A DNA stretch of 64,000 bases, taken from positions 1 to 64,000 of the IMG/VR virus record IMGVR_UViG_3300032167_007466; one strand, given 5' to 3'. The notes under the pieces are model-generated. The model saw only the letters and a list, made by a program, of their open reading frames with translations, searched no databases and was not told where the DNA came from. Origin of the DNA: a virus (lineage: Duplodnaviria > Caudoviricetes). Made by a program: the position numbers and the translations under genes. Shown in pieces: positions 7,974-55,378 of this stretch (the first letter of the stretch is position 1; every line of letters begins with the position of its first letter).

Positions 7974-8157
7974 TGAGTTTATCCCTCCATTCTTTTTGCC
8001 TTTTTTTAGTTTCAAACCAGTCCTTAATACTGCTAAAAATGTTACTGATTTTTTCAGCAACAATACACACAATAATAAGTATTAGTATCATAAATAGCAA
8101 TTGTGCTCTTTCGAAATTCACAATCACACCTCCTTGAAAGACTTGTTTTATTGACAA
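7957..8157 (-). CDS. small single-TM protein
   Basis: Hydrophobic stretch then basic tail; real start probably a downstream GTG. Confidence 0.5.
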   Translation of the reverse strand: MSIKQVFQGGVIVNFERAQLLFMILILIIVCIVAEKISNIFSSIKDWFETKKRQKEWRDKLNGKSR

Positions 8158-8534
8158 ATTGTGCCGTTTTCAATAACATCATTGAAGAATTCTACGACCT
8201 CTTCCTCTCCGTTAAACACATATTTGCTATCCCAAAATTCCATATGTTTCTTTAAAAACTTAATAATATGCTTTTTAAAAAGATCTGTCGGATATTCATA
8301 CGTAAATTTTCGACGGACATCATTTAATAATTGCTCAACTCTCATAGCGGATGAAACAGCACCAAAATAATTAAATGTTACGTTAAGAACGCCCATCTTC
8401 TCAGTCTTAAATCTTGTTGTAAGGTTATAGTCCATCCAATCGTAATCATTAAGCTGAAGATATGTGTTAGTTCTGTCGTCTTCAATGTCATTGCTGAAAA
8501 TCAAATCTTCACTTTTTATTTTTTCTAAATTCAA
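8148..8534 (-). CDS. hypothetical protein bounded by two dyad sites
   Basis: RBS GAAAGGGG; sites at 8555-8570 and 8135-8150. Confidence 0.75.
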   Translation of the reverse strand: MNLEKIKSEDLIFSNDIEDDRTNTYLQLNDYDWMDYNLTTRFKTEKMGVLNVTFNYFGAVSSAMRVEQLLNDVRRKFTYEYPTDLFKKHIIKFLKKHMEFWDSKYVFNGEEEVVEFFNDVIENGTICQ

Positions 8535-8567
8535 GATTTACCCCTTTCTCACTTTAAAAGCGTGGTT

Positions 8568-9542
8568 TTATTGGCAAAATATCTGGCTCAAGATACAAGC
8601 AATAATATCAACAGTCCAGCCATTCCCGATACAACGGTATCTTGCTGTATCGCTAACACCTTCAGTATAATTATCTGGCAATGTCTGAAGTCTTTCACAT
8701 TCTAACGGAGTTACTTTGCGAATACAATTTTTAAAGTTCTCAAGAGTAAGTTCCTTTGCCTTTCCCTCAATCACAAGACTTGGAATATGACCTCCGCCTT
8801 TTGCTGTTCTAATAGTTACTGATTTGTTCAAATGAACTCTCGGTCTCTTCTCCTTAAATCCGCCATAAATATTAGACAATTCGATAGCTTTAAACACCAT
8901 TTGTCCCTGATATTTTTTAAAGTATTCACGATGAGTAGTTCTACCAATAGATGCAATAATAGCATGCGCCTTATCTCTATCTACAAGAGCATCAGGCAAT
9001 ACAACATCTTCAAGTAAAATACCTCTATCTTCAGGCAACTCGATTTCAATCTTACTGTATGTACCGTCGATATTTCTTTTACCAACCCAATATAATCTTT
9101 TTCTATCTTGTGCTGATACCAAATTACTATTTATTAATTGCGGTTCAAGTCCAAGGCACTGATTGATTATATCAATGTATTGTTTTTTCATTGGCGTGTT
9201 TTCGAATAAAAAGTATTTTGGTTGCACTTCCCTTAATGCTCTTACAAACTCAAAAAACAGTTTGCTACGTGGGTCTTCAAAGTTCAATTGCTTACCTGCA
9301 AATGAAAATCCTTGGCATGGACTGCCACCCATCAAGATATCAAATCCCACATATTGAGTGAAGTCCGCCGTTGTAACATCGCCATAGCGTTCTATATCAG
9401 ACCAATTATTTTGGCTGACCTTTATAGCATCTGGGTCAATTTCATAGGCGGCGTATCTCTTTAATGGAATTTTTGCTCTGTCAAAAGCAACTCTTCCACA
9501 AGACACTCCGTCAAATAAACTTACTGCATTTATTTCTTTCAA
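8568..9542 (-). CDS. dcm: DNA (cytosine-5) methyltransferase
   Basis: SLFDG, GGSPCQGFS, FEN, Q.R.R, ERLQ, GNGW motifs. Confidence 0.93.
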   Translation of the reverse strand: MKEINAVSLFDGVSCGRVAFDRAKIPLKRYAAYEIDPDAIKVSQNNWSDIERYGDVTTADFTQYVGFDILMGGSPCQGFSFAGKQLNFEDPRSKLFFEFVRALREVQPKYFLFENTPMKKQYIDIINQCLGLEPQLINSNLVSAQDRKRLYWVGKRNIDGTYSKIEIELPEDRGILLEDVVLPDALVDRDKAHAIIASIGRTTHREYFKKYQGQMVFKAIELSNIYGGFKEKRPRVHLNKSVTIRTAKGGGHIPSLVIEGKAKELTLENFKNCIRKVTPLECERLQTLPDNYTEGVSDTARYRCIGNGWTVDIIACILSQIFCQ

Positions 9543-9636
9543 TAATCACATTGGAGTAAACTATAGTTTGATGTCCGGACAAACCTCTTTCCTCCTTCTG
9601 TAATTTTGTTTACAATATATTATTCTCTCTTTGTTA

Positions 9637-9933
9637 TTAAATTTTGTTCCAAATTTCTGCGTTATCTATAATCATGCGAAACCTACTATAACAACTTGAA
9701 CACACTCGTTTCAGAATGTGTTCAGGAAAACCATCTCTCGAAATATCAATGCTATATGTCGGCTCAGTTTCTCTGATAGACAAATGACAACAATCACAGG
9801 TTGTATATTTGTAAATAGGTCTCATGTGAATATCGTGAGATCCACAAACAGGACAACACTCTTCACCATCATTATCTATTTCGGTCTCGTCTGAACGCCT
9901 ATGGCAATTCTTACATATATAATAGAAATCCAT
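9637..9933 (-). CDS. zinc-finger protein
   Basis: Four CxxC pairs. Confidence 0.7.
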   Translation of the reverse strand: MDFYYICKNCHRRSDETEIDNDGEECCPVCGSHDIHMRPIYKYTTCDCCHLSIRETEPTYSIDISRDGFPEHILKRVCSSCYSRFRMIIDNAEIWNKI

Positions 9934-9967
9934 TTTAGCCTCCTATTTCGTCAATAAAACGAGCGTT

Positions 9968-10492
9968 TTATCTGGCTATATCGACTGCTATCCCCTCGTA
10001 ATTATAAGACATAAAAGCTTCTATCTTATCCTTACAGTCCTTGCAGTAGATTTTCTTATTGCCAAATGCCTCTCTTAACCCCTTGCTTAAATTATGAGAA
10101 ACTGTTTCGCAACTTCCCCATGTACCTTCAGGATTCATGTCATGTCCAGTTATATCTATTGTGTAATATGTACCGTTTCCACATGGTTTCTTGCATCTGT
10201 CACAAGTGATTTTTGATAACATTAACAGAGAACTAATTTTATCAGCATCGAATCCGTCTTTAATTCCTGAGAATAGAGCGTCAAAAGTAATCATGCTTAA
10301 ATCTTCTATATCAGCACCATTTGACATCATATAGTCTTTAACTTCGTCATACAACTTGCATAGGTCTATAAATGCCTTTTCGGTTGAATACTTCTTTTTG
10401 TCTCTCTGTTTAACGTATTCACAGTAATTAACTATTGGCTCAAGTTCAGATGATTTTAAATCAGAATATGCTCTTCCGTTGCAATATTTCAT
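9968..10492 (-). CDS. hypothetical protein with C-terminal zinc finger
   Basis: CDRC...CKDC; RBS GGAGG. Confidence 0.7.
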   Translation of the reverse strand: MKYCNGRAYSDLKSSELEPIVNYCEYVKQRDKKKYSTEKAFIDLCKLYDEVKDYMMSNGADIEDLSMITFDALFSGIKDGFDADKISSLLMLSKITCDRCKKPCGNGTYYTIDITGHDMNPEGTWGSCETVSHNLSKGLREAFGNKKIYCKDCKDKIEAFMSYNYEGIAVDIAR

Positions 10493-10641
10493 TTACTACC
10501 TCCTAATAAAAAGAATTATCCTTTTTATTTATTTCTGTTGAAGAAGGCTTTAACTCCAACCCTTAATTCGCGGGAGGAGGACTCCCCCAAGTCTTATACT
10601 TACCTTTGATATTGGTGATGGCTCTAAAATGTAAGTGCCAT

Positions 10642-10718
10642 TGGCTGACCCTGTTGGATTCGAACCAACGGAATGCAGGAGTCAAAGTCCTGTGCCTTAC
10701 CGACTTGGCTAAGGGTCA
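10642..10718 (-). tRNA. tRNA-Gln (anticodon TTG)
   Basis: TGACCCT/AGGGTCA acceptor, CAGGA-CTTTGAC-TCCTG anticodon arm, GTTGG-TTCGAAT-CCAAC T arm, encoded CCA. Confidence 0.95.
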
Positions 10719-10721
10719 ATA

Positions 10722-10850
10722 TGGAGACAGGTAGGTCTGCCAACCACACATCTGACATTTAATCACAGCAACAATGGAGACGGCGTTGTCACCGCCTTAA
10801 TCCATGTCCACTGCCTTGCGGTAGTGTCGCATTTTGTTATCATATCTACC
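10722..10850 (-). ncRNA. candidate structured RNA between the two tRNA-type genes
   Basis: Terminal stem GGTAG/CTACC, hairpin CACTACC-GCAA-GGCAGTG, hairpin ATGGA..GGCG-GTGACAA-CGCC..TCCAT; no credible ORF. Confidence 0.45.
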
Positions 10851-10852
10851 AG

Positions 10853-10946
10853 TGGTGAGATAGGTCAGAGTCGAACTGACAACCAAGGGCATTCAACAGC
10901 AATATCCCTTCACGCTGTAAAGCTCTGCCGATTGAGCTACTATCCC
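10853..10946 (-). tRNA. tRNA-like RNA (94 nt) with a non-canonical expanded anticodon region
   Basis: Acceptor GGGATAG/CTATCTC+ACCA, D arm GCTC-AATCGGCA-GAGC, T arm GTCAG-TTCGACT-CTGAC; 41 nt between D and T arms with no canonical anticodon stem-loop. Confidence 0.8.
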
Positions 10947-10949
10947 GTG

Positions 10950-11114
10950 TTTATGGGCATCTCACCCATTTGGCATATATGGTTGTTAGTCATCTGTGTC
11001 GGTATATGCTTACCGCCGTTTACCACCATCCAACGGAAGGTTGACGGCTGTGACCCCTTAACTACTCACGATTTAATCTACGCCACAATCACTCTGGAGC
11101 TTAGCGGAACCGTC
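10950..11114 (-). ncRNA. candidate structured RNA at the head of the tRNA cluster
   Basis: GC-rich; stems GACGGT/GCCGTC, CCGTT/AACGG, CGGT/ACCG, ATGGG/CCCAT; begins just after the GAGAATAAT motif. Confidence 0.4.
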
Positions 11115-11134
11115 TATTATATTATTCTCTCTTT

Positions 11135-11374
11135 TTATTCAACAGAGATTAAACTTTCAACAACTTCTATTGCTTTGGCTTGTCCGGTCTTTAATAATTC
11201 TTCGCCATCCCACCAACTACTTTCAAAAGAAGATTCTGCTTTCTTTTTACTTGTGTAAGTTTTAATGGCTGTATCTCCAATATCATTTATTGGTTTAAAT
11301 TTATAATTACGAGCCAGTCCACAAAAGATTTTGTCCTCTTTGATAATTACCCAACGTTTTCTTGCTATTGTCAA
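11135..11374 (-). CDS. hypothetical protein
   Basis: RBS AAGGAG, TTG start. Confidence 0.65.
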   Translation of the reverse strand: MTIARKRWVIIKEDKIFCGLARNYKFKPINDIGDTAIKTYTSKKKAESSFESSWWDGEELLKTGQAKAIEVVESLISVE

Positions 11375-11386
11375 TTTAAAATCTCC

Positions 11387-12154
11387 TTATATAAATTCAT
11401 CTTCCAAAACCACTACATTGCATTCGCCTGTATGAGCAGTGCAACGGTCAATACCAATAATGCCTTCGGCATAACAAGGTTCCCAAACAGCGTCTTCATC
11501 AAACTCACTTTTGCAATGACCAAGCATTTTGTGACCTGTGCTACAATGCCAATGACCGAACAATATTGTCTTGCCGGTTTGATTTAGTCCTTGTGCTGCT
11601 ATTTCAAATGGATTTCCCCACATTGCTTCATCCCATTCTTTTTCTGTTGCGTTTCGCCAGTCCGGGTTAAAGCGATACTCCCTGTCTCTTGTGTAATATT
11701 TTGGGTAATCATCTTCAACTATTAAAGGAATCCAACTGTGTACAAAGATGTATTTCTCGGTTTCAAAATAGTTTACTAATAACTCCCTATATCTCGCTAA
11801 TTTATCCCAAGTTCTACAACAACACTCAGCGAAACTTCTTCTATAGACTGCACCTCCAAGGTCTTTAATTGTCTTAACAGTGCCATTAGATGAATCGTGA
11901 GAATAAGGGAACTCTCTCATACAACACTCTTCAAGCAAAGTATCGTGATTACCTTTTACAAGTATCTTTCTTTCAAGAGACATAAGGTAGTGCAATACTT
12001 CTTCGCTTTCTCCTCCACGATCAAAGCAATCGCCACAAACAATTAACCAATGTTCTTTGTTGTTTGGGTCAAATCCAGCTTCATCGAGTGCTTTCTTGAA
12101 TGGTGTATAAAAACTATGTATATCTGAAGTCACAAATAACTTTGGCATTTCCAC
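11387..12154 (-). CDS. calcineurin-like metallophosphoesterase
   Basis: SDIH, GDCFDRG, GNHD, FVH, GHWH motifs. Confidence 0.92.
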   Translation of the reverse strand: MEMPKLFVTSDIHSFYTPFKKALDEAGFDPNNKEHWLIVCGDCFDRGGESEEVLHYLMSLERKILVKGNHDTLLEECCMREFPYSHDSSNGTVKTIKDLGGAVYRRSFAECCCRTWDKLARYRELLVNYFETEKYIFVHSWIPLIVEDDYPKYYTRDREYRFNPDWRNATEKEWDEAMWGNPFEIAAQGLNQTGKTILFGHWHCSTGHKMLGHCKSEFDEDAVWEPCYAEGIIGIDRCTAHTGECNVVVLEDEFI

Positions 12155-12172
12155 TCTCCTTCCCTTTAAAAC

Positions 12173-12523
12173 TCAAATTTCATCTGCTTCAAAATATTCT
12201 TCAACTTCAGAAAACCCACCGTATGTTAAATCGCCTCGGATTGGCTTTAATGTGTGTCTACAAAGAAAATATAAAATCTTTTTGCAATCATCAAGTGATT
12301 TTACTTTATTTAGATTTAATTCATAATGCTTGTAAACTTCTGTAGCGATTATTCCTTCATTATAGTTCTGACTATTTTTTGACCAGTTGATCGTCTGTTG
12401 AACCGAGTCATTTGGATAAAACTTAGGCTCAGGCGGCAATTCATATCCCATACTATTATTCTCCTTTTTATGTAACATAATGTCTAAATTGTAAGGCTTA
12501 GTAGCCTCGCTTCTTACTACCAT
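12173..12523 (-). CDS. hypothetical protein
   Basis: Co-oriented ORF; alternative start at 12451. Confidence 0.6.
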   Translation of the reverse strand: MVVRSEATKPYNLDIMLHKKENNSMGYELPPEPKFYPNDSVQQTINWSKNSQNYNEGIIATEVYKHYELNLNKVKSLDDCKKILYFLCRHTLKPIRGDLTYGGFSEVEEYFEADEI

Positions 12524-12764
12524 ATTTACTTAACCCACTTTTAAAATTACTTGATTTCAAATAGTTGTTACGTCTTATGCCATGCAACATTTGACGATTC
12601 TTCTCTTGTTTTTTAATTTCTTCCTGTTTCAATTTTTCGGCTTCTTCTAAATCTTTTTGCATATTAGCAAGACATTCATCGCAAACAAGAATCGCCATAT
12701 AGTTTTCCGTTGTAACGGGCTGTAAAAACTTATGGCAACACCAACACGCTCCGCCACTTCCCAT
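12498..12764 (-). CDS. zinc-binding hypothetical protein
   Basis: CWCC...CDEC; RBS AAGGAGG. Confidence 0.65.
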   Translation of the reverse strand: MGSGGACWCCHKFLQPVTTENYMAILVCDECLANMQKDLEEAEKLKQEEIKKQEKNRQMLHGIRRNNYLKSSNFKSGLSKYGSKKRGY

Positions 12765-12793
12765 TTAAAAACCTCCTTAAAAGAGAAATTCTA

Positions 12794-12985
12794 TCAGTTT
12801 CCTAATATAATCTCTTTAGCAAAACTCATAGCTTTAGAGCCGCACATCTTACCAAAGAATTCACCTGCCGACTCCACAAGTTCCTTTTCTTCCTTAATAC
12901 AATACGGCATTCTTGTATTTGGGTCGTTGAGTTTTGTCTGGTTTTTAATAACAATACCCTCTTGCTTATTGCCATATTTCGAAAA
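12794..12985 (-). pseudogene. probable RNA ligase remnant
   Basis: Start-less frame SKYGNKQEGIVIKNQTKLNDPNTRMPYCIKEEKELVESAGEFFGKMC..; EGIVIK matches ligase motif IV. Confidence 0.55.
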
Positions 12986-13030
12986 ACTACTTGATTTTTA
13001 TATAGTTAGCTCCATTTTATAATAAAATTT

Positions 13031-13390
13031 TTATTTACCGATAATTTCTATCGCTTTAGCATTGGATCGTGATTTACTTTTATTTCTCGCAACAACTATT
13101 TCATAAAGCTCTTTAATGTCGTCATGATGTTTTTCCATTAGACGTTTTACAACTACATATTGTTGCATGATGATAACCCTATGATTATCATTTTTTAATA
13201 AGTCTAATAATTTATCAATCTCTGTTTCGGTACTAATAATATCACCCAATAATACTTCTACGGATTTGATAATATTTTCTGGTATCTCTTTTACATTAAC
13301 TCTCGGCAAAGTATCTATATCTGTCACATGGAGCTTTGCTACACCATTTTCAAATAAATCGTACACATCTTTTGTGTTTAAATAGTTCAT
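13031..13390 (-). CDS. hypothetical protein
   Basis: RBS GAGGA, ATG. Confidence 0.65.
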   Translation of the reverse strand: MNYLNTKDVYDLFENGVAKLHVTDIDTLPRVNVKEIPENIIKSVEVLLGDIISTETEIDKLLDLLKNDNHRVIIMQQYVVVKRLMEKHHDDIKELYEIVVARNKSKSRSNAKAIEIIGK

Positions 13391-13478
13391 ATTAAATCCT
13401 CACTTTCACAATAAATAAACATTTTATCTTTTTATTCATTATCATTCCATCCATTTTACAATAAAATGTGTATTTTAT

Positions 13479-13730
13479 TCACTCTATATGTTCTCCACTA
13501 TAAACGCCCGACCATTTTAATTTGCCATTGGTGGTCGTTTCTTTGCCATATACTTCTTCATACCTAAATTGTTTTGTCAGTTCGTAGATTCTTTGTTCTT
13601 TTGATTTCTTCATCTCCAATTGCTTAATTTTATTGTTAAGTTCCTCAATCTGTGAATAACAGTTTGCAATTTCTTTATCAATATCTGAACGAGTATCTAT
13701 CCAAGACATATAATCACCAACTTTCACCAT
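13479..13730 (-). CDS. hypothetical coiled-coil protein
   Basis: Bounded by dyad sites 13730 and 13462. Confidence 0.65.
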   Translation of the reverse strand: MVKVGDYMSWIDTRSDIDKEIANCYSQIEELNNKIKQLEMKKSKEQRIYELTKQFRYEEVYGKETTTNGKLKWSGVYSGEHIE

Positions 13731-13746
13731 AAAATAAATGTTTTAA

Positions 13747-14016
13747 CTACTTAGCAACTTTGTTATCCCAGTTGTCTTCTTCTGTAGTTGAAAAATATAT
13801 AGTAATACCGATTGTGTCATCATCAACAGTAAATTTTTCATGCCTATCATAAAAATAACCATCTTTGGCATCAATTTTAATATTGTCAAAAATAACATCT
13901 GTTTTGTTGTATATTTCTACGGTATCATGTTTATTGTTTTGGGCACACCCCACCATGCATAAACACAAACAAATCAAACTTAAAAATACAATTACTTTCT
14001 TTTTCAAAGCAATCAC
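13747..14016 (-). CDS. putative lipoprotein
   Basis: KKK + hydrophobic core + MVGC lipobox; bounded by dyad sites. Confidence 0.7.
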   Translation of the reverse strand: MIALKKKVIVFLSLICLCLCMVGCAQNNKHDTVEIYNKTDVIFDNIKIDAKDGYFYDRHEKFTVDDDTIGITIYFSTTEEDNWDNKVAK

Positions 14017-14094
14017 ACCTACCTTTCTTCCATAAAATGAGTGTTTAATTTGCTTCCTAATATATTATTCTCTTTTATTTTTTAAAAGAGATAT

Positions 14095-14121
14095 TAAAAG
14101 AGCCAACTTTGTGTCAGCTCC
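14095..14121 (-). terminator. intrinsic terminator
   Basis: GAGCTGAC-ACAAA-GTTGGCTC-TTTT on the minus strand. Confidence 0.7.
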
Positions 14122-14135
14122 TTTGAATGAAAATT

Positions 14136-14435
14136 TCATCGTGATTTTATCTTGAACTCCAGATTCTCAATTACTGTAACAAGTTCATTTATAATGTTTG
14201 CAGAGTCATCTTCCATATATGTATCATATAAAAACTCTAAGGCATTGCCACATTCGAGCAATTTGTTAATTAGTTTATTTGAGAGTTTATCAGCATTTTC
14301 TTCAATTAAACACACTATCTCTGCTTTAATTGCGGTCTCATATGACCTATCAAATATTTCTGTTGACTGAAGCTCAAGAATTTCACCCTCATAATCATCA
14401 AATTCTTTATTGAGTTTTTCTATCAGTTTATCCAT
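14136..14435 (-). CDS. DUF3848-like protein
   Basis: EI.D.SYE..IK.EI...L..LY..Y pattern recalled for DUF3848. Confidence 0.55.
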   Translation of the reverse strand: MDKLIEKLNKEFDDYEGEILELQSTEIFDRSYETAIKAEIVCLIEENADKLSNKLINKLLECGNALEFLYDTYMEDDSANIINELVTVIENLEFKIKSR

Positions 14436-14914
14436 TTGATTTTTGTATCTCCTTTATAACCCTTTTCAAACTCATACCAAGCATAAGCCACTGCACTACC
14501 ACCGCCAGCTCTCATGCCTTCAAAGTCGGCATTCTTAGCACAGAGGATCCTCGAAGACGAAACATACACAGTTTTCAAACAACCGCTATCAAAAAGTTTT
14601 CTTCTTGTTTTACCCTCAAGGAACTGTAATTTAAGGAACATAAATACTCGTCTACCTTCAGGAACGAGTTCAAGACCCTTTTCTACAAACTCTTTTGCGA
14701 ATTTATAAGGTGGATTTGTGATAATGTCGCCATCAAACTGCTCAGTGCAAGCAAGGAAATCTACATTACCTTCACCGTAACCTCTATCTACAAGGTCTGT
14801 TGAATACACATCGTATCCATATTCTTTAAGTTTTTCTGAAAGATGTCCTTGCCCGGTAGCACACTCCCAAACTCTTGGAGAGAGTTTAACACCACCGTTC
14901 TGATTTATTCTTAT
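14423..14914 (-). CDS. N6-adenine DNA methyltransferase, probably 5'-truncated
   Basis: Frame extends upstream to VWECATGQGHLS (SAM-binding) and has IITNPPY; no ATG, only ATA at 14914. Confidence 0.75.
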   Translation of the reverse strand: MRINQNGGVKLSPRVWECATGQGHLSEKLKEYGYDVYSTDLVDRGYGEGNVDFLACTEQFDGDIITNPPYKFAKEFVEKGLELVPEGRRVFMFLKLQFLEGKTRRKLFDSGCLKTVYVSSSRILCAKNADFEGMRAGGGSAVAYAWYEFEKGYKGDTKIKWIN

Positions 14915-14916
14915 GT

Positions 14917-15264
14917 TTAATTATTCTCCATATCATTGAGATGTTTTATCAAACATTTACGACATTCTTCAGTCTTATAGTTTTCGCAATCTTCTCTACG
15001 ACAACCGCAAAACAACTGACCGTCACAAGCAGTATCTTTTATGTAAAGGTCGGCAAGTTTATTGAAGTCGGCGTATTCTCGGCTATCCACACAAGCCAAT
15101 TCAACGAGTTCCAAGTCATAATTGCTCCAATATGGTCTTCGTTGATTATGTTTTGTAATAGCTTCTCTACAAGCATATTCTCTCATCCAAAATTTGTGTC
15201 GAGGACTTGTGAGGTCGCTTACATACTTGCCGGTATTTTTATCTCTTGCAGCATAAACTTTCAT
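14917..15264 (-). CDS. hypothetical Cys-rich protein
   Basis: Translationally coupled ORF. Confidence 0.65.
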   Translation of the reverse strand: MKVYAARDKNTGKYVSDLTSPRHKFWMREYACREAITKHNQRRPYWSNYDLELVELACVDSREYADFNKLADLYIKDTACDGQLFCGCRREDCENYKTEECRKCLIKHLNDMENN

Positions 15265-15878
15265 TATTCATCATCCTCATCTTCGTTTAACATATCTATT
15301 GCATAATCATAACCTTCCCAGTCATCAACACCAGCACCTTCTAAAGCAGACAACATTTCGTCTCTCTTCAGAAGTTTTTCGTATTCTTCTTGAGATATGG
15401 TGAAATTACCACCAGCAACTTTTACGCCAGTGCCACTAATTGAATTGAGAACACTATCAAGTTTATCTTTTATGTCGCTGCGAACAGATGAGTATAAATC
15501 TTTATATAATTCTTCAATTGCCTCGTGTTTAATTTGTTTTGTAAGACTTTCAAGCCTGTCCGGATTTTTAAGCAATTGTTCTTCTATGTAATGTTCAAAC
15601 TGAGTTAGATACTTTTCTTTCGTCTCTTTGAGGACTTCTTCGTAAACCTTCTCTTTGATTTCATCCTTAACTTCTCTTTTTACATCAGCTATATCACTAT
15701 ACGAAAGACGTATTTCTTTATTTAGTCCTGATTTTAAATCTCTAATAACGGTGTCTGCCGTTGCCTGAAAATCATATTCGGCAAGTTCTCTAATTACGCC
15801 CGCTTGAATGCCCTTAAAAACATCCTCAAAATCAAATTCAAACTTTAATTTTTTGCCAGCCAATATATCACTCCTCAA
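15264..15878 (-). CDS. hypothetical phage protein
   Basis: C-terminal L.ALE.AGVD.WEGY motif common in phages. Confidence 0.75.
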   Translation of the reverse strand: MRSDILAGKKLKFEFDFEDVFKGIQAGVIRELAEYDFQATADTVIRDLKSGLNKEIRLSYSDIADVKREVKDEIKEKVYEEVLKETKEKYLTQFEHYIEEQLLKNPDRLESLTKQIKHEAIEELYKDLYSSVRSDIKDKLDSVLNSISGTGVKVAGGNFTISQEEYEKLLKRDEMLSALEGAGVDDWEGYDYAIDMLNEDEDDE

Positions 15879-16149
15879 TCAATTTTACTTTACTTGCGTA
15901 ATTCACTATGTCGGCATTAGTTTCGTTTTCCTCTAAATATGCCTCATAAGCCTCTTCACAATAACTTCCTTCACAAGAGTAAAATCCTGTTGGTGTTACA
16001 TATGATTTATTTTCTCCATAATCTGTACGAGAACAGTACGCACACAACGATTCTTCATCACATAATTCTTGAAATGTTTTGAGCAAAATAACACCTCCGT
16101 TTTTCTCTTGTTTTCTCTGTTTTTCTCGCTTTTTCAAACCTATTTTCAC
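15868..16149 (-). CDS. hypothetical Cys-containing protein
   Basis: CAYC..CEGSYCE; real start probably ~16083. Confidence 0.6.
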   Translation of the reverse strand: MKIGLKKREKQRKQEKNGGVILLKTFQELCDEESLCAYCSRTDYGENKSYVTPTGFYSCEGSYCEEAYEAYLEENETNADIVNYASKVKLIEE

Positions 16150-16174
16150 TTTAAAATCTCAGTTTTATTGGGTG

Positions 16175-16564
16175 TCAAAGCCCTACCTTGTCTTTGCATG
16201 ATTTACAAACATTTTTCTTTAAAACTTGATTTCCTAAACCACCACTCAAATCGCAAGATTCAGTTGTCATATTGACCTTTCCGTTTTCAAACTCGACTTT
16301 AGGAAAAATAATATTTCCACAGACCGAGCAAATATATGTAGAATTTTTATATACTTTAAGCACACTTTTCAACTGCTCCCTATCAAAAACATTTTCTGCT
16401 GGTTGGGATTTAATGTCCTTATATGCTATTTTTAACCCTTTGTTGATATATTTGTTTTGTTCTTCTGTGACAAAGAATGTATCATAGTCGATTTCTTCTT
16501 GAATTTCTTTGAGTAAATTTCCTCGGTTAATATATTCATTCATTTGTACATTCTCCTTATCCAT
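16175..16564 (-). CDS. hypothetical protein with zinc finger
   Basis: EYI.R..L N-terminus; CSVC...CKSC. Confidence 0.65.
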   Translation of the reverse strand: MDKENVQMNEYINRGNLLKEIQEEIDYDTFFVTEEQNKYINKGLKIAYKDIKSQPAENVFDREQLKSVLKVYKNSTYICSVCGNIIFPKVEFENGKVNMTTESCDLSGGLGNQVLKKNVCKSCKDKVGL

Positions 16565-16773
16565 TCACAATAAATCCTATAGTAAAGCTTTTGATACCAA
16601 TGTAGATTGTTCCAAATATCACCCATAGTATATTTTGCAAGTTCATATGGTGATTTTCTATAGCGAGTTATTATTTGTTTCATTTGTTCTTCTCCTCGTT
16701 TGCTACGTTTTGATTCTTTAGCTGGCAATATTTCTATTTTTGAACCATTTTCAAAATGAATTACTCTACTCAT
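16540..16773 (-). CDS. hypothetical protein
   Basis: FENGSKI motif; coupled ORF. Confidence 0.6.
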   Translation of the reverse strand: MSRVIHFENGSKIEILPAKESKRSKRGEEQMKQIITRYRKSPYELAKYTMGDIWNNLHWYQKLYYRIYCEWIRRMYK

Positions 16774-17080
16774 CTATACTATCCTCCAACCAAGGTTTTA
16801 ATGTTTGTGCAAAATTTTGAAAAGCTTCGGACGCTTGTTTTGTCGAAATACTCATCCTACGGATAGCATCACTACATTTCCTGAAAGCTACAACCGACAA
16901 GATACTTTGTAATCTCATCGGGTCAAAATATAAAACTTTATATGTAATGCCTTTTACCCGAATTTGCTCGTCAAGATACATCTGATAATCTTTCTTCAAA
17001 TGGTTCTCGGCTATAATTTTGCATCTATATTTATATTCTCTTTTAGAAAGTTGATTTTTCATTTTTACAACGCTCCACAT
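16766..17080 (-). CDS. hypothetical protein
   Basis: Coupled ORF. Confidence 0.6.
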   Translation of the reverse strand: MWSVVKMKNQLSKREYKYRCKIIAENHLKKDYQMYLDEQIRVKGITYKVLYFDPMRLQSILSVVAFRKCSDAIRRMSISTKQASEAFQNFAQTLKPWLEDSIDE

Positions 17081-17246
17081 CTTCTCTTGTTAACAACATT
17101 GTTCTACCATCTACTTTGCTACGCCAGTGTTCATATCCCTTTGCTACTGCCGATGGTTTGTCTGGATAATATGCAAATTCTATTTCTTCGCCTTCTTCAA
17201 AGTCCATAATTGTATAAATTCGATTAGGGTCTTTTACAAATTTCAT
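17043..17246 (-). CDS. hypothetical protein
   Basis: Coupled ORF (ATGA overlap). Confidence 0.6.
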   Translation of the reverse strand: MKFVKDPNRIYTIMDFEEGEEIEFAYYPDKPSAVAKGYEHWRSKVDGRTMLLTREDVERCKNEKSTF

Positions 17247-17948: not shown

Positions 17949-17986
17949 ATCAAAATCCTGATAAAAGTCCTATTCTATCACCAAAA

Positions 17987-18029: not shown

Positions 18030-18043
18030 GATTTTTGATTTTA

Positions 18044-18835: not shown

Positions 18836-18845
18836 AATTCACATC

Positions 18846-22801: not shown

Positions 22802-22810
22802 ACTGCCTCC

Positions 22811-45504: not shown

Positions 45505-45562
45505 TGTCTTTGTGCCTACATTATATTATTCTCCATTCGAAAAGAACAATATTAAAAAATCA

Positions 45563-46543
45563 TCACATCATTCTCAATAAATCCCCAACACCAAATGCAG
45601 CATTGACATAATTTCCAACAGTTGTTTCTATATCCTTATGCCCCAAATTCTGTGCCACAAACTGGATGTCTGCTCTTTTTGCCATAACAGTAGAATAATA
45701 ATGTCTTATCTGATGTGGAGTAATTCCATTGCCATAATTCTTAAAGATAGCAATAACTGTATCAGCCGAAATACTCGTGTTGTTTTTTGTTATAAATACA
45801 GCATTGATATTTTCCACTCCGTCAATTTCTTGTCTTATCTCAAGCCATTTTTCAAGAGCAGACAACGCTGTTCCTGTTATAAATACCTTTCGTTTATCAT
45901 CTTCTTCATAATAACCTTTACCAAGCACAGTAATATAAGGTATATCTTCCTCAAAATGAAGGTCTGATATTTCCAATCCCGCAAGCTCGCTCTCTCTTAT
46001 TCCTGAACCTAAAAGTGTTTGAAGCATAGCAATATTCCGCTCTCTCACTATTTTATCCTTTTTCCATTGTATGCGTTCAAACATTTCATCTATTTGTTTT
46101 TTATCAGGCAATTTAGCATAGATATTTTCAACATTATTTTTCTTGCCTTTATAACCACATGTTTTTACCGGATTCTTTTCCAGTTTACTATTTGGAGACT
46201 CAACTAAATTTGAAAAGAAGGATGACAATATATTTTTTCGTGTTGTTAAAGTTGTACGACTCATTCCTTCTGTTTGTCTCTGTTTTAAATATAGAAATAC
46301 ATCTGCCGGCTCCAGTGTGTTAAATGAATTTGGAGTTAGTTCAGAGATTCCTTTCTCCGTAATTAAAGCATTTTCCACAAGCCACAAAAGAAAATCCTTA
46401 ATGGCAATATAGTAATTTCTCGCACTAGCTTTACTATATAATTTATATAAGTACTTCCGTATAAATAATGGTGTTTTATCTTTGTCAAATTCTGCAAACA
46501 ATTTATCCTCATTGTGTCTTTGAACATTGTCTTTATAACACAT
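45563..46543 (-). CDS. tyrosine recombinase (XerC/D-like), catalytic residues intact
   Basis: GIRESEL (R), GKG (K), HQIRH (HxxR), LGH (H), GNY (Y); SAM-like N-terminal domain. Confidence 0.93.
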   Translation of the reverse strand: MCYKDNVQRHNEDKLFAEFDKDKTPLFIRKYLYKLYSKASARNYYIAIKDFLLWLVENALITEKGISELTPNSFNTLEPADVFLYLKQRQTEGMSRTTLTTRKNILSSFFSNLVESPNSKLEKNPVKTCGYKGKKNNVENIYAKLPDKKQIDEMFERIQWKKDKIVRERNIAMLQTLLGSGIRESELAGLEISDLHFEEDIPYITVLGKGYYEEDDKRKVFITGTALSALEKWLEIRQEIDGVENINAVFITKNNTSISADTVIAIFKNYGNGITPHQIRHYYSTVMAKRADIQFVAQNLGHKDIETTVGNYVNAAFGVGDLLRMM

Positions 46544-46827: not shown

Positions 46828-46931
46828 TGTCGCAGTTGTCTGATAAAAGCACTTGTGAAAGCAGGTGCTTTTGTTTTGTCTATCACCTCTGGTATATTAT
46901 TCTCCATAAATTTCAAGTTGAAACTATTATT

Positions 46932-47156
46932 CTATTGTGGTTTTATAACCTGAACATCTGCAATTTCATAGAAGAAAGCATCAAGCTCTCCTATATCGCC
47001 TATTAGGTCACATGAAATATGGGTTTCTGATATATCAGTAACCATACCAACATAGTTCTTTTCATCATTGTTTAATTTAATTTCAACTTTGTCACCTTGA
47101 ACAACTTGAACTCCGTTAGATAATACATAACAAAATCTTGCGTTTTCCATAAACAA
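46932..47156 (-). CDS. hypothetical SH3-like protein
   Basis: Bounded by dyad sites. Confidence 0.65.
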   Translation of the reverse strand: MFMENARFCYVLSNGVQVVQGDKVEIKLNNDEKNYVGMVTDISETHISCDLIGDIGELDAFFYEIADVQVIKPQ

Positions 47157-47643: not shown

Positions 47644-47679
47644 ATTATCACATCCTTTTTAGGTGTTAAAACAGTAGTT

Positions 47680-47973
47680 CTATTGGCAATCTATAAAGTT
47701 TATATCGCAATCACAACCAATAAATTGACCTCCACAAACAGGGCATCTTTCTACATCACAACCATAATGATGATAATGCCCTTTTAATACGTTACAATCA
47801 TGGCATCTTTCCCCTGTATCAAAATCATCTTCTCCGTATAGGATTCTTTTATAAATTTTTCCATTACATTCAATTTCTGAACAGCTACATCCGTCACTTT
47901 TTAACATGCGCTGACCGCAAATTTCACATTTAGCTCCGCCTTCAGCAATAATTTCTTCTATGGTTTTATTCAT
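47680..47973 (-). CDS. Cys/His-rich zinc-binding protein
   Basis: [24 protein letters not shown]; bounded by dyad sites. Confidence 0.75.
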
Positions 47974-48009
47974 TGTATTCCCTCCTAAATTCTATATAAA
48001 ATACACGAT

Positions 48010-48204
48010 TTATTTATTCTTATCGTAATATCCGTTACCGTATCTTCTTCTGATTTCGGACTGTGAAACACCGTTACAGATGTCTCTTGTCATTTTTGAA
48101 TTGTCAACATCCAGAGGATTTTTATTTTCCACTTTCTGATTAGTTGAATAACTGCAACATGCCCAAATAACCGCTATGATAATAATTCCAATTAAAGTTC
48201 CCAT
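48010..48204 (-). CDS. small membrane-anchored protein
   Basis: N-terminal TM; C-terminal RRR..G.YD. Confidence 0.65.
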   Translation of the reverse strand: MGTLIGIIIIAVIWACCSYSTNQKVENKNPLDVDNSKMTRDICNGVSQSEIRRRYGNGYYDKNK

Positions 48205-48873: not shown

Positions 48874-49083
48874 TTAAATAGCTCCCATTCTTAATTTAAT
48901 CTTTATCTCTGTTAAGTCTGCAAGAGTATTCATAACTTCTAATTCATGTTCAAAATCAATGGGTTTATCAGATGTTTTCCCATAATCTCTTGCTATGATA
49001 CTTCTTTGCAAGTTAGATATTTCGCCAATCGTCATATTTGATACTTTCATATTTGCCTCCTGTTGAAATGCGACTTCTATCAA
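48874..49083 (-). CDS. hypothetical protein
   Basis: RBS GGAGG before MKVSN. Confidence 0.55.
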   Translation of the reverse strand: MIEVAFQQEANMKVSNMTIGEISNLQRSIIARDYGKTSDKPIDFEHELEVMNTLADLTEIKIKLRMGAI

Positions 49084-49379
49084 GAAATTACCTCAAAATT
49101 GCTCTTGAAAATTTCCTCTGATATTACTTTAAACATTCTTCTATCTGATACCCTTCTGATAATATAATCAGTAGGTTTTACAACTGATTCATAATTATGA
49201 TGTTCCAAATTACAAATATGTAAATCTGGCACAATTACTCTTACACATAAATCCAACTTCTCTGTTATAAACTTCTTGCATTTTTCCACTTGTTCTGAAG
49301 TGTATTTTTCATATCTGATTGCTTCATATTCATTTTCCGTAAAAAGATTTCTAATCTTTAACATATCCTCTACCTCCAA
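49080..49379 (-). CDS. hypothetical protein
   Basis: DYII......F..IS.EIF...FE. Confidence 0.6.
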   Translation of the reverse strand: MEVEDMLKIRNLFTENEYEAIRYEKYTSEQVEKCKKFITEKLDLCVRVIVPDLHICNLEHHNYESVVKPTDYIIRRVSDRRMFKVISEEIFKSNFEVIS

Positions 49380-50137: not shown

Positions 50138-50181
50138 ATAATCAACCTTCCTCTCTGTAAAATAGACTTAAAATTCCGATT

Positions 50182-50430
50182 TCATTGCCTATTAATTCCT
50201 AAAATTCGTTCACAAGCACTATATACAGTTTCAGTATCATCTGTATGTCCATTACACTCTTCAACAATTCTAACAATCATATCCATTGATATATCATCAA
50301 ATTTAGTGTTAAATGGATATACTTTAGATGTTTCACTTTCAAATGCAATAAAGTCAATTATATTCCATTCTTCTGTTGTCATTGGAATATTTAATTTTTC
50401 ATTGCTTGTTTTTGCCCAAGTCTGTTTCAT
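50182..50430 (-). CDS. hypothetical protein
   Basis: AGGAGG RBS; bounded by dyad sites. Confidence 0.7.
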   Translation of the reverse strand: MKQTWAKTSNEKLNIPMTTEEWNIIDFIAFESETSKVYPFNTKFDDISMDMIVRIVEECNGHTDDTETVYSACERILGINRQ

Positions 50431-52256: not shown

Positions 52257-52419
52257 AACCTCCTACTCTACATCAAATTCTTCTATGTCAAAATTTCCGT
52301 CATACTTATTGCATCCAATATCATAAGCCTTTGTATATTCATCATAAATGCCTATGATTTCTCCATCTACACTTAATACATAAACCGTCATAGCAAACTC
52401 CCCTTTTAAAATCCTTGTT

Positions 52420-52671
52420 TCATCGTGTCTCGTCATTGAATACATCAATAAAATAATCCGCTTTTGGAAATTCTGAAAGGTATTTTCCACCCTCTCCGTA
52501 TTCCTTGTTATATTCACTAACCACCGCCCATGCCTTATCGTGATCTTCTGTTTCCAAAACAGTTTTTACTGTTCTTCCGCTTTTCTTTTCCCTTATATCA
52601 ACACAATACAACATTGCTTTATTCCTCGCTTTCCGTTGCTTCAAACCTTGCACAAACAAAATTTTCCGCAT
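52420..52671 (-). CDS. hypothetical protein
   Basis: Start probably MLYCVD; stop codon lies in dyad site 52407. Confidence 0.55.
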   Translation of the reverse strand: MRKILFVQGLKQRKARNKAMLYCVDIREKKSGRTVKTVLETEDHDKAWAVVSEYNKEYGEGGKYLSEFPKADYFIDVFNDETR

Positions 52672-53799: not shown

Positions 53800-54054
53800 T
53801 CACTCCTCATAATTCCATAATTCAAGCTCGTCAAAAATCCATGTATTGTCTTTGTATTCCTCTGCAAGTTCTGCTCCAATACTTCGCCAATTTGACGGAC
53901 AATTTATAGTTAGTGCCATCTGTTCAATAAGTTGTGCTGCAAACTGCAATAACTCTCTTGATTCGTCATAAAGGCTTAAATTTTCCTTGTAATATATAGC
54001 TTTTTCAATCATGCTTTTTATGATATTTTCCATCTGTTTTATTCTCCTTTGCAA
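53800..54054 (-). CDS. hypothetical protein
   Basis: Co-oriented with RBS. Confidence 0.6.
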   Translation of the reverse strand: MQRRIKQMENIIKSMIEKAIYYKENLSLYDESRELLQFAAQLIEQMALTINCPSNWRSIGAELAEEYKDNTWIFDELELWNYEE

Positions 54055-54260
54055 TACTTCTTTACATATCGTCTGAAAGTCGCTTCTGCTTTCTTTTTAT
54101 CATTGATTGAATATGTCATTTTTTGAAGAGGATAACCGCACATATTATTGTCATAACAGGGACAAACCTCTACAATATAAATGTCATTTCCCCATACATT
54201 TTTAACTTCCATAGTCACATAATAATTATTTTCCTTGTGTTGCCTTATTACTGTTGACAT
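54039..54260 (-). CDS. hypothetical protein
   Basis: GGAGG RBS. Confidence 0.65.
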   Translation of the reverse strand: MSTVIRQHKENNYYVTMEVKNVWGNDIYIVEVCPCYDNNMCGYPLQKMTYSINDKKKAEATFRRYVKKYCKGE

Positions 54261-54373
54261 ATTAAAACATCCCTCCGCTTTAAAATCTTGCTTTCAAAGT
54301 GTTTTTTCCATAAAAATAGAGTGACCTATGTATTAAACACATAAATCACTCTGTAAATGTTTTTTAATATCAA

Positions 54374-54595
54374 TCAATTTTCTGTAAAAACTCCGCTATT
54401 GATGCAAACAGTAATTAACACATGCCCATTATTGCCCGGGGCTATAGCCGTAAGTGTTGCCTCTTTATATCTACTCATCTTTTTTTTATCCTCTAAAGAA
54501 AAATCGTCAACATAACTATATTCTTCATTTGTTGCATCTTCAACCAATATATCGCAATCTACAACCATATATCCACTAATATCTTTTAATTTCAT
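54374..54595 (-). CDS. hypothetical protein with its own sigmaA promoter and terminator (moron-like)
   Basis: TTGAAT-N17-TATAAT upstream, AAGGAGG RBS, hairpin ~54318-54352. Confidence 0.65.
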   Translation of the reverse strand: MKLKDISGYMVVDCDILVEDATNEEYSYVDDFSLEDKKKMSRYKEATLTAIAPGNNGHVLITVCINSGVFTEN

Positions 54596-54712
54596 AACAA
54601 AACCCTCCTTTCATATGTTATTATACCAAATTAATCTTGAAAATTCAAGTCTGTATGAGTGATTTATGTATTTAATTGTCAAGGTTCAAATTAATATTTT
54701 TCAAAAACCGCT

Positions 54713-54943
54713 TTATTTTCCGTTTACTTGATTATAAATGTAATGTAATTTGTCTTGTGCTTCTGTTTCCGTTTCTGCCTCTGCAAGTGCAAAATTACCG
54801 CATAAATTAATACTTGCATATATGATAAAATTCTTCTGTTCGTGTTCCGGCTCTGATATATAAATACTTGTTATTTGTGCCGTGTTCAATAGTCTTTTAT
54901 TGTCATGTGTTTTCATCGTGTCCGTGCTCCTACTGTCAAGCAA
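54713..54943 (-). CDS. hypothetical protein
   Basis: Co-oriented ORF. Confidence 0.55.
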   Translation of the reverse strand: MLDSRSTDTMKTHDNKRLLNTAQITSIYISEPEHEQKNFIIYASINLCGNFALAEAETETEAQDKLHYIYNQVNGK

Positions 54944-54951
54944 TTTAAAAA

Positions 54952-55353
54952 TTAATCAATATAGCAGTTAATAACCGTTGCAAACTGTCTCATATTTTCC
55001 GCTATTGTCTGCCGTTCCTCTGCTCTTTTTTGATCTGATTCCCAACCGTCAACACCTTTAAAAAGTTTGTTGTATGTTTCTATTGGTTTTAAGTTGTGCA
55101 GATAATAAAGGCGATTTTCTGCAATAATAACCGCATCTATAATATCAGCAATACCACTACCCCAAAGTCCAGCACTTCTCAAAGATTTAAAATGTTCTAT
55201 TTGTTTATTTGGCTGCAAATCCTTAAATTTGCAGATATTCCGCACAACTCCGCATGTTTTGTTGTTTTCCGTGTTTACAACTGTAATTGATGTTTTACCT
55301 ATTTTTATATGCTTGTTTTCAAGTTCTGAAATGTGCATTTTGACAACCTCCAA
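54952..55353 (-). CDS. hypothetical protein
   Basis: GGAGG before MHISEL. Confidence 0.65.
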   Translation of the reverse strand: MEVVKMHISELENKHIKIGKTSITVVNTENNKTCGVVRNICKFKDLQPNKQIEHFKSLRSAGLWGSGIADIIDAVIIAENRLYYLHNLKPIETYNKLFKGVDGWESDQKRAEERQTIAENMRQFATVINCYID

Positions 55354-55378
55354 AATTTACTATAAAATCATTATTCAA

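Follow-up and report, generated by a model that had tools for sequence, protein, structure and literature searches.

The sequence examined here, referred to as the window, is a stretch of 64,000 nucleotides from an SPbeta-like gut prophage in which short dyads lie between the small early genes. On the coding (minus) strand the dyads have the consensus TRRAA-N6-TTTYA, a 16-base palindrome, and usually start at or just past a stop codon and end just short of the next ribosome-binding site, the placement given in the preliminary description of this DNA. The sites, the cassettes between some of them and a recombinase gene are as follows.

8135-8150, minus strand: dyad, coding strand TAAAACAAGTCTTTCA; TAA is the stop codon of gene 8148-8534
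8555-8570, minus strand: dyad; TAA is the stop codon of gene 8568-9542
9955-9970, minus strand: dyad; TAA is the stop codon of gene 9968-10492
12167-12182, minus strand: dyad; the centre contains the stop codon of gene 12173-12523
12778-12793, minus strand: dyad, left arm TAGAA; AGGAGG immediately after
13462-13477, minus strand: dyad, 4 nt from the first stop base of gene 13479-13730
13730-13745, minus strand: dyad between gene 13747-14016 and gene 13479-13709
16152-16167, minus strand: dyad, 10 nt from the first stop base of gene 16175-16564
17962-17977, minus strand: dyad within the 216-nt gap after gene 18044-18835
27141-27156, minus strand: dyad, centre CTATAC; identical 16-mer in relative L145, both flanks non-homologous
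27605-27620, minus strand: dyad after gene 27628-28284
28336-28351, minus strand: dyad, centre GCAACA; L146, L151, L152 and L153 carry this centre on the downstream side of an unrelated 167-aa gene
28359-28769, minus strand: 136-aa gene, cassette between anchors 28812 and 28336; relatives have the unrelated 167-aa gene there
28812-28827, minus strand: dyad, centre CCAACG, which also precedes the 167-aa gene in about six neighbourhoods
28825-29175, minus strand: 116-aa gene, cassette between anchors 29198 and 28812
29198-29213, minus strand: dyad, centre CAAGTG; same centre with unrelated flanks in L151 and L153
33577-33592, minus strand: dyad, then TCAGG...GGAGAATAAT
33952-33966, minus strand: variant, 5-base centre (TAAAACGTTGTTTTA), at the stop codon of gene 33965-34213
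45563-46543, minus strand: Xer-like tyrosine recombinase (326 aa), a candidate enzyme only
46919-46934, minus strand: dyad; TAG is the stop codon of gene 46932-47150
47667-47682, minus strand: dyad; TAG is the stop codon of gene 47680-47973
47997-48012, minus strand: one-off variant, left arm TAAAT, at the stop codon of gene 48010-48204
49064-49079, minus strand: dyad, 3 nt from the first stop base of gene 49080-49364
50169-50184, minus strand: dyad; TGA is the stop codon of gene 50182-50430
52407-52422, minus strand: dyad; TGA is the stop codon of ORF 52420-52671
54281-54296, minus strand: dyad upstream of gene 54039-54260
63440-63455, plus strand: strict palindrome overlapping the stop codon of plus-strand gene 62743-63450; adjoins the YonO-like RNA polymerase gene

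Over both strands of the window, TRAAA-N6-TTYYA was matched 42 times compared to 10.6 ± 4.2 (maximum 22) in dinucleotide shuffles, and the 53 intergenic stretches include 19 exact sites compared to 0.33 ± 0.58 when each spacer was shuffled. When the spacer of TRRAA-Nk-TTTYA was varied from 0 to 15 on the coding strand, k=6 gave 25 matches and any other length 0-6, and an unguided EM search of the same 53 stretches returned the dyad as its top motif, present in approximately 62 % of them. Spacer length, the intergenic shuffles and the EM search each pick out this motif, and the dyads described earlier are real. Though about 30 sites had been claimed, exact sites in the early arm number about 21-24, and one-mismatch matches are mostly noise (38 with N6, 31 with N7). 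Twelve stop codons had also been placed within dyad arms; eight of these (8148, 8568, 9968, 28825, 46932, 47680, 50182 and 52420) do lie in exact sites, but the other four are in one-off variants with a TTCAA arm (14136 and 47185), an N5 spacer (33965) or a TAAAT arm (48010). As described before, no sites were found among the replication-core genes, between 17977 and 27141, but the RNAP arm, said to have none, includes the strict palindrome at 63440-63455. Window matches at 42479, 52213 and 52474 are intragenic and look like chance occurrences.

The dyad is a trait of the phage family. Strict copies number 34 in SPbeta, 57, 50, 51, 36, 20, 19 and 18 in relatives and 0-3 in controls, and a sister clade has none; up to 57 are present in prophages with nearest named relatives in Paenibacillus. 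The fixed arms are R-TAAAA-B and V-TTTTA-Y, relaxed in the window phage to TRRAA and TTTYA. In 189 pooled sites the base before the site is A (61 %) or G (30 %) and the base after it T (58 %) or C (27 %), with position 6 'not A' and position 11 'not T'. These preferences are mirror-symmetric, flanks included, and when covariation was examined at five mirror pairs in the pooled sites, pairing was clearly above chance at none; nor are there extra pairs. Mirror symmetry with no co-variation suggests that the site is read as double-stranded DNA, by two protein subunits in a symmetric arrangement, and is not a hairpin. Hence, an element acting in the RNA, either a weakly paired A-U hairpin or a site for a protein on the polycistronic mRNA, with a role in termination/re-initiation coupling or processing, is extremely unlikely, though the location between a stop codon, often included, and the next ribosome-binding site would suit it; strict palindromes are also present between convergent and divergent genes.

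Symmetric preferences without covariation are also what would be seen if the dyads were dispersed operators or roadblocks for a protein that binds DNA symmetrically, such as a helix-turn-helix dimer of the Xre type, and silences or times transcription of the early genes. The half-site centres are 11 bp apart, which is typical of such dimers, dozens of copies lie in short gaps between co-oriented genes and often overlap the stop codons, and an Xre-type family is common to six of the seven motif-bearing genomes. The model would be the stoperators of mycobacteriophage L5, reportedly described by Brown et al. in 1997 as asymmetric 13-bp sites in one orientation that are bound by the immunity repressor gp71. 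They too are dispersed, about 20-30 in number, in short intergenic gaps and often over stop codons, but unlike them the phage dyads have symmetry. The master repressor of SPbeta binds elsewhere, its box being different, asymmetric and found at about ten promoters rather than at the 34 dyads (PMC10516654; bioRxiv 10.1101/2025.11.27.690993). If the dyads were operators, gene swaps would stop at them only because they occupy the entire intergenic gap. This explanation, offered as the alternative in the preliminary description and considered rather unlikely by us, may account for the arms but does not account for the properties of the dyad centres, namely their identity across phages despite replacement of both flanks, their uniqueness in each genome and the scarcity of palindromic ones.

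Pairs among the prophages G014, G015 and G018 have 34, 36 and 30 identical 16-mers in common, and the order of these is perfectly colinear. Both 150-nt flanks are homologous at only 6-8 of the shared sites per pair and neither flank is homologous, protein level included, at 12-17; as these three genomes are related, their counts are not independent. In the window's own lineage, the sites at 29198, 28812, 28336 and 27141 are found again, centre unchanged, next to unrelated genes, and L151 has the first three in the same order as the window. The 116-aa gene 28825-29175 is replaced by 108- and 133-aa genes (L151, L154) or by a 171-aa gene (L153). About six neighbourhoods have an identical 167-aa gene with a CCAACG site on one side and a GCAACA site on the other. 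Around it the centres are constant and the outer arm varies with the neighbour (TAAAA, TGAAA or TAAAT upstream, and TTTCA, TTTTA or TTCAA downstream).

The proposal that the genes between sites are mobile cassettes holds insofar as the sites mark gene exchange, the centre being kept while one or both flanks are unrelated in relatives, but insertion and excision of single cassettes as in an integron is unsupported, as neither attC-type folding nor an attI/Pc platform was found. In integrons, attC sites work in a folded, single-stranded form that has extrahelical bases, and their partner in recombination is a single attI. The dyads resemble them in lying at gene 3′ ends, often over stop codons, in bounding promoterless gene units and in having a tyrosine recombinase gene nearby, next to one of the arrays. 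However, they behave as positional anchors and not as cassette-linked sites, the centres are unique in each genome and matched between exchange partners, site order is conserved, and the nearest solved relatives of the recombinase are Xer proteins, not IntI. A true integron-like system, with cassettes excised as circles and reinserted anywhere by a recombinase tolerant of differing centres, is thus very unlikely.

Homology blocks end at site positions 16-18 in 29 of 60 cases and start at -1 to +1 of the site in 21 of 43, and the joints are almost never within the site. A contig from one bovine-gut run has 29 other letters in place of 9634-9954, with the joint at the first base of site 9955. 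Gene boundaries are junctions in 93 % of cases with a site and 52 % of site-less cases at equal gap size (p=1e-6), and boundaries are mosaic in 88 % of comparisons with a site and 68 % without. Junctions at boundaries lacking a site are numerous (52-68 %), and one own-lineage junction, at 26604, is inside a gene. With a stop codon hard against one end of the site and a ribosome-binding site against the other, a joint could scarcely fall elsewhere, and the sharpness of the joints is, alone, weak evidence.

Some conserved islands in the window's own lineage are approximately 50 bp and include the GAGAATAAT element, so ordinary short-homology recombination could use them. The exchange might, then, be real but due to general or phage single-strand-annealing recombination on 16-50 bp islands of identity, with the dyads as small regulatory cassettes providing portable homology and no dedicated site-specific enzyme. 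Downstream of 28336 and 28812 the islands do run on for about 12-14 nt to a GAGAATAAT element that is also shared, and annealing proteins are encoded (SSAP_Sak in L151 and a Sak4-like protein in SPbeta). A precedent for shuffling of this kind is documented in T4-type phages, where PeSLs consist of a promoter and a terminator stem-loop and homology between copies within a genome leads to mini-circles (PMC2839356). PeSLs likewise recur as small elements between the small early genes of hyperplastic regions, and gene gain, loss and replacement end at them. The dyads differ in being 16 bp long, in not folding and in that no two copies in one genome have the same centre. Moreover, the island in G014, G015 and G018 is exactly the 16-mer, which is very short for homology-driven exchange, and neither invariant arms around a variable centre nor the paucity of palindromic centres is expected from homology alone. 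We regard this route, too, as rather unlikely.

No centre is duplicated within any genome (0 compared to 6.3 expected, P=0.0013; 0 compared to 3.9 in non-redundant genomes, P=0.02), and palindromic centres are depleted (1 compared to 6.1 expected, P=0.019). A Tn916-like tolerance of non-matching centres had been invoked, but exchange partners share the centre. With shared centres that are unique in each genome, cassettes could be neither excised nor shuffled inside a single genome, and in-register exchange from one genome to another would be favoured.

Since relatives keep the centre of each copy while the neighbouring genes are swapped, the copies are most likely numbered crossover points. 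Our preferred explanation, to which we assign a probability of about one half on sequence comparison, is that phages exchange cassettes in register through the dyads, which would serve as addressed crossover sites. The fixed inverted arms would be read on double-stranded DNA by a symmetric pair of protein subunits, and the six-base centre, different at each junction, would be the address. Only sites with the same centre would recombine; in practice, the partner would be the corresponding junction in a relative that co-infects or in a prophage already resident. A single crossover would swap genome arms and two at neighbouring sites would swap the intervening gene or genes, leaving gene order and reading frames intact, and unique, non-palindromic centres would prevent deletions and inversions within one genome.

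We infer that exchange at the dyads is most likely catalysed by a phage-encoded Xer-like tyrosine recombinase, with the centre as the overlap region tested for homology. The 45563-46543 product is perhaps the enzyme; it retains the aligned Arg, Lys, His-x-x-Arg and His motifs, and the alignment ends short of the likely catalytic Tyr. A YomM-like paralogue (68297-69304 of the record) is another candidate. YomM-like recombinases track the motif imperfectly, as G017, with 20 sites, lacks a detectable homologue and G011 has a homologue and zero strict sites, and the association may reflect shared ancestry only. Characterised tyrosine-recombinase sites have arms of 10-13 bp, longer than the 5-7 bp conserved in the dyads. 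At the single-recombinase Xer sites difH and difSL the arms end in GAAAA beside the central region (PMC5357621).

Among known systems, exchange by Cre and FLP needs spacer identity, and heterospecific lox or FRT sites are used for recombinase-mediated cassette exchange. As proposed for the dyads, such sites have identical arms and differing spacers, so that only like-spacer sites recombine, and two different sites flank a replaceable cassette, fixing its position and orientation; whereas those are engineered, the dyads would be a natural arrangement in which one genome has 20-57 addresses. Dyad sites for XerC/XerD also flank the gene modules of pdif/dif systems in Acinetobacter plasmids (PMC6449649). 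As with pdif and the Xer/dif sites (difH, difSL), the phage dyads are short, have a central region of roughly 6 bp and flank discrete gene modules; as with pdif modules, the same module is found in different neighbourhoods, and an Xer-family recombinase is encoded in the window. They differ in that the conserved arm is 5-7 bp rather than 11 bp, in their number, with dozens in a genome that all differ in centre and stand in an order conserved between phages, and in their phage location, wedged between stop codons and ribosome-binding sites.

Within the same phage family, SPBRE (MrpR/YopR/SroF) is also a repeated element, and its reader has a tyrosine-recombinase fold. It is an asymmetric 15-26-bp box bound by a monomer at about ten promoters (PMC10516654; bioRxiv 10.1101/2025.11.27.690993) and differs in sequence from the dyad, which is in 34 places in SPbeta. 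The SPbeta dyad sometimes adjoins SPBRE, two such places being upstream of aimR and yosX.

Sites of the form TRAAA-N6-TTYYA, 16-bp dyads with inverted arms around a six-base centre, were found 42 times on the two strands of the window against 10.6 expected, bearing out the motif of the preliminary description. On the coding strand, where the form here is TRRAA-N6-TTTYA, 25 matches were counted at N6 and 0-6 at every other spacer; 19 exact intergenic sites compare with 0.33 in shuffled sequence. When 53 stretches of intergenic DNA were searched by EM with no guidance, the dyad came out first; it was present in approximately 62%, an A preceding its first T and A or T following its last A. Typically a stop codon comes first and frequently supplies the opening three bases of the site; beyond the site come a short stretch, a Shine-Dalgarno sequence and a start codon. 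Against the approximately 30 sites first proposed, 21-24 exact ones were counted in the early arm, and of 12 proposed overlaps with stop codons eight match the pattern exactly, the other four being one-off variants. Calls with one mismatch were too noisy and were dropped. There is indeed no exact site over the replication genes (17977-27141), but the RNA polymerase arm, which was said to have none, carries one strict copy (TAAAA-N6-TTTTA) at 63440, in the + strand arm.

The provirus record is 109 kb long, the window covering its first 64 kb, and by predicted gene content the window has the hallmarks of the SPbeta family:

244-1830, left end of the window: large serine recombinase
18846-21995: DnaE-type polymerase
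59816-62635: YonO-type single-subunit RNA polymerase
within the window: anaerobic ribonucleotide reductase
within the window: primase-helicase

Nearly every gene across 244-57750 lies on the - strand, and protein similarity between SPbeta itself and the window is confined to about 12 genes. Near-identical copies of the phage are present in animal faecal and gut metagenomes, no close DNA relative was found among GenBank phages, and scanning IMG/VR, GTDB genomes and metagenomes with the DnaE-like polymerase yielded relatives of ≤74% identity. The nearest of these come from Clostridia metagenome bins, and more distant ones, in which the motif is present, from Paenibacillus. Look-ups of the 128-aa (8148-8534), 174-aa (9968-10492) and 97-aa (47680-47973) proteins returned same-phage copies only.

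Further genes lie in or near the accessory arrays. A tRNA-Gln (anticodon TTG) at 10642-10718 lies inside the first array; metagenome contigs cover it 20-50 times as deeply as its neighbours, which means that many other organisms match it. Genes for a Gad2-family protein (Pfam Gad2 match) and a Lar-like restriction-alleviation protein lie 3' of the polymerase gene (window 18044-18835; 17551-17787 of locus L140), and are replaced in the related contig L145 by an HTH gene and others. The second array includes a TnpB/Cas12f-like (IS605 OrfB) gene (32144-33484), of which a related 473-aa copy stands in another neighbourhood in the relative L152. Genes for a GmrSD-like nuclease (36481-38094) and an AIPR abortive-infection protein (41666-43495) are also on the prophage, and the 39.7-44.8 kb region, with mixed strands and a G+C content of only 28-30%, resembles a defence or lysogeny island.

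The dyad is a family trait. In SPbeta (NC_001884), 34 strict copies were counted, mostly at early-gene stops, against 0-4 at other spacers, and whole records of relatives have 57, 50, 51, 36, 20, 19 and 18, the reversed control giving 0-3. A sister clade, closer by polymerase, had zero strict copies in the whole-record count. The closest clade from the polymerase scans lacked the motif, no 16-mer was held in common with this phage among the scanned relatives, and a search of that clade for an analogous dyad with different arms gave no clear candidate. Across seven genomes most sites lie between genes of like orientation. Their most frequent offset is zero, the site's TAA then serving as the stop codon itself, and the next start is most often 14-29 nt away; where gaps are long, many sites remain on the stop codon. 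The searchable literature was queried for the motif and for SPbeta mosaic breakpoints, and no description of the motif turned up there.

The centres behave like addresses. Within each of the seven genomes every centre is unique, in both orientations (0 repeats versus 6.3 expected, P=0.0013; 0 versus 3.9, P=0.02, in non-redundant genomes), and self-complementary centres are depleted (1 versus 6.1 expected, P=0.019). In this record all 38 of 38 stop-proximal candidate sites differ in centre, a count that includes noisy one-mismatch calls and is uninformative for the record alone. Unique, non-palindromic centres suit a recombination site that requires a match, because duplicates would delete or invert DNA and palindromes lose direction. 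The dyads might instead be purely the operators of a regulator, the alternative allowed for at the outset, and for the arms this may hold; however, a pure operator needs neither unique centres nor a scarcity of palindromic ones.

Three related prophages (G014, G015 and G018) have 34, 36 and 30 identical 16-mers in common in perfectly colinear order, the sites standing as anchors between swapped genes. Homologous DNA lies on both sides at only 6-8 sites per pair, whereas at 12-17 sites per pair both 150-nt flanks and the adjacent proteins are unrelated and identity is limited to the 16 bases. It had been proposed to look for breakpoints within the N6 core; homologous blocks stop at site positions 16-18 or begin between -1 and +1, and almost never break inside the site. 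Gene boundaries with a site carry junctions in 93% of cases, against 52% at equal-gap boundaries without one, and are mosaic in 88% of comparisons against 68%. Joints this sharp are in part unavoidable, since the site takes up the gap from one gene to the next; the 16-base islands between two replaced flanks are not forced by gap geometry. A serious rival is exchange by short homology on islands of 16-50 bp, with the arms retained for a regulatory protein. We nevertheless assign a probability of roughly one half to the reading that the dyads are addressed crossover sites, at which related phages exchange genes in register.

Within the lineage of this phage, contigs of close relatives were gathered through exact-protein look-ups (98.7% identity across the replication genes for L145 and L146). 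The proposal that the sites are exchange points held for those at 29198, 28812, 28336 and 27141, which recur with their own centres beside unrelated sequence, and the contig L151 keeps the first three in window order. The interval between the CAAGTG and CCAACG centres holds a 116-aa gene in the window and 108- and 133-aa genes or a 171-aa gene in relatives, and that between CCAACG and GCAACA a 136-aa gene in the window and an unrelated 167-aa gene in relatives. The latter, sequence-identical, stands between CCAACG and GCAACA sites in approximately six neighbourhoods, so a given gene does keep the same cores in different surroundings. At its sites the outer arm varies with the neighbour while the centre and inner arm are constant, which places the joints at the arm-centre boundary. 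Not every joint lies at a site: one is at the polymerase stop and one inside the 109-aa gene 26550-26879. Only the C-terminal part of that gene is common to L145 and L146, and its intragenic breakpoint (26604) implies a chimeric protein made elsewhere than at a dyad. Contigs of four public runs were also compared with window positions 8001-28000. One bovine-gut run contains a 98-99% relative of the replication genes, and its joints beside sites (from 9633 to 9955 across 29 letters, and from 8153/8155 to 8550/8543) are hints only, because their sides are short (21-29 letters) and the contigs are metagenomic. A joint that runs backwards, 13745 to 13459, may stem from a circle, from a duplication or from a different organism.

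Base preferences were examined in 189 pooled sites oriented by transcription. The preceding base is A or G (61 and 30%) and the following base T or C (58 and 27%), A is avoided at position 6 and T at position 11, and these preferences are exact mirror images although the surroundings are unlike, with a stop on the upstream side and a ribosome-binding site on the downstream side. Pairing was not clearly above the composition-predicted level in any of the five mirror pairs, and the centre is fully self-complementary in only one of the 189 sites. Mirror symmetry with no excess pairing is the signature of double-stranded DNA predicted to be read by two identical subunits. A reading as RNA or a single-strand hairpin was rejected, there being no covariation between mirror pairs.

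The likeness to integrons drawn in the preliminary description, which itself allowed for no attC hairpins, does not extend to attC sites, whose single strands form imperfect hairpins: pairing in the 189 sites is not clearly above chance. An integron has an IntI-type integrase beside an attI site, with a Pc promoter heading the array. The only array-adjacent recombinase here is, among solved structures, most like XerC, XerA, XerD and XerH; there are three arrays, and sites flank the recombinase gene on both sides. Xer/dif sites are 28 bp, with two 11-bp arms and a 6-8-bp central region; the 5-6-5 core of the dyad agrees in layout, its mirror preferences extend one base past each arm, and the outer arm positions are unconserved. 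In published single-recombinase Xer sites the arms end in GAAAA beside the central region (PMC5357621). Dif modules recur, flanked by the same sites, in different neighbourhoods, as does the 167-aa gene between its CCAACG and GCAACA sites. Stoperators of the L5 type are asymmetric, in one orientation to transcription and bound by the immunity repressor, whereas the dyad is symmetric. In PeSL cassettes a sigma-70-like promoter precedes a terminator stem-loop, and the dyads differ because the typical 33-45-nt gap is too small for a promoter and there is no stable stem; a GAGAATAAT element follows a few of them. The SPBRE/MrpR-SroF operator was also rejected as the identity of the dyad. ChAP-seq peaks of the SPbeta repressor correspond to ten SPBRE promoters (PMC10516654), whose common words resemble AAAAATATGTATA and differ from the dyad, and the published phi3T box of MrpR/SroF is asymmetric and 26 bp long (bioRxiv 10.1101/2025.11.27.690993).

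Fixed arms around a variable, matched centre are the design of tyrosine-recombinase sites, as of the dyads. Heterospecific lox or FRT sites, as engineered for cassette exchange, likewise have fixed arms and a variable matched spacer. By analogy, the system appears to be like dif modules, PeSL shuffling and, above all, heterospecific-site cassette exchange. Somewhat less probable than crossover at the dyads as such is that recombinase-mediated cassette exchange occurs naturally in SPbeta-like phages: dozens of heterospecific sites would have the same arms and each its own six-base address, and a phage tyrosine recombinase would swap genes in register with related phages. The candidate enzyme, 326 aa and Xer-like (45563-46543, - strand), has Pfam Phage_integrase and SAM-like N-terminal domains; aligned to the XerC-like 4a8e it shows the Arg, GKG, H-x-x-R-H and LGH motifs, and a C-terminal Tyr was spotted by eye. 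It may act on the dyads. Its similarity to SPbeta YomM is weak (24% identity, E 3e-5), and orthology to YopR or YopP was unsupported (E 0.1). A second tyrosine recombinase, a YomM-like paralogue, lies past the window in the late-gene arm (68297-69304 of the provirus record), with YomM as best match (30% identity, E 3e-16). The YomM-like family is common to SPbeta and several motif-bearing relatives; the distributions of recombinase family and motif are imperfectly matched, and their association may reflect kinship alone.

Phage genomes are mosaics, and it has long been asked whether their joints arise at random, selection then sorting them, or at dedicated linker sequences. Here the joints are a defined site of 16 bases whose centre is specific to its position. 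As the motif occurs in the model phage SPbeta, the question is directly testable by Bacillus subtilis genetics. Should an enzyme be involved, the dyads would supply orthogonal recombination sites ready for use; otherwise they still mark the exchange points of accessory, defence and anti-defence genes. The prophage family concerned is large, with hosts in Bacillus, Paenibacillus and gut Clostridia, and the mosaic evolution of SPbeta-like genomes would, were the cassette-exchange reading true, be programmed and not accidental.

Other elements lie beside the dyads. A GGAGAATAAT / GAGAATAAT element, which does not in every case serve the following gene as ribosome-binding site, is found at a fixed 12-14 nt 3' of several dyads, in these regions of the window:

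28285-28335: element region
28770-28811: element region
33540-33576: element region
46880-46918: element region
45500-45562: further element region

In relatives the element is conserved jointly with the dyad, as islands of approximately 50 bp. The longer intergenic regions 54297-54373 and 54596-54712 have a common box (…TAATACATAGGTCACTC and …TAAATACATAAATCACT), preceded in one case by TTGACA. Its AATACATA core resembles the words of MrpR-bound SPbeta promoters (ATATGTAT), and the box may be the operator of the repressor in this phage. In Paenibacillus-type relatives an SPBRE-like AATACATAT followed directly by the dyad forms a conserved unit of 38 bp with both flanks differing, at these loci:

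L019, 5773-5810: SPBRE-like sequence and dyad
L020, 4040-4077: SPBRE-like sequence and dyad
L023, near 3711: SPBRE-like sequence and dyad
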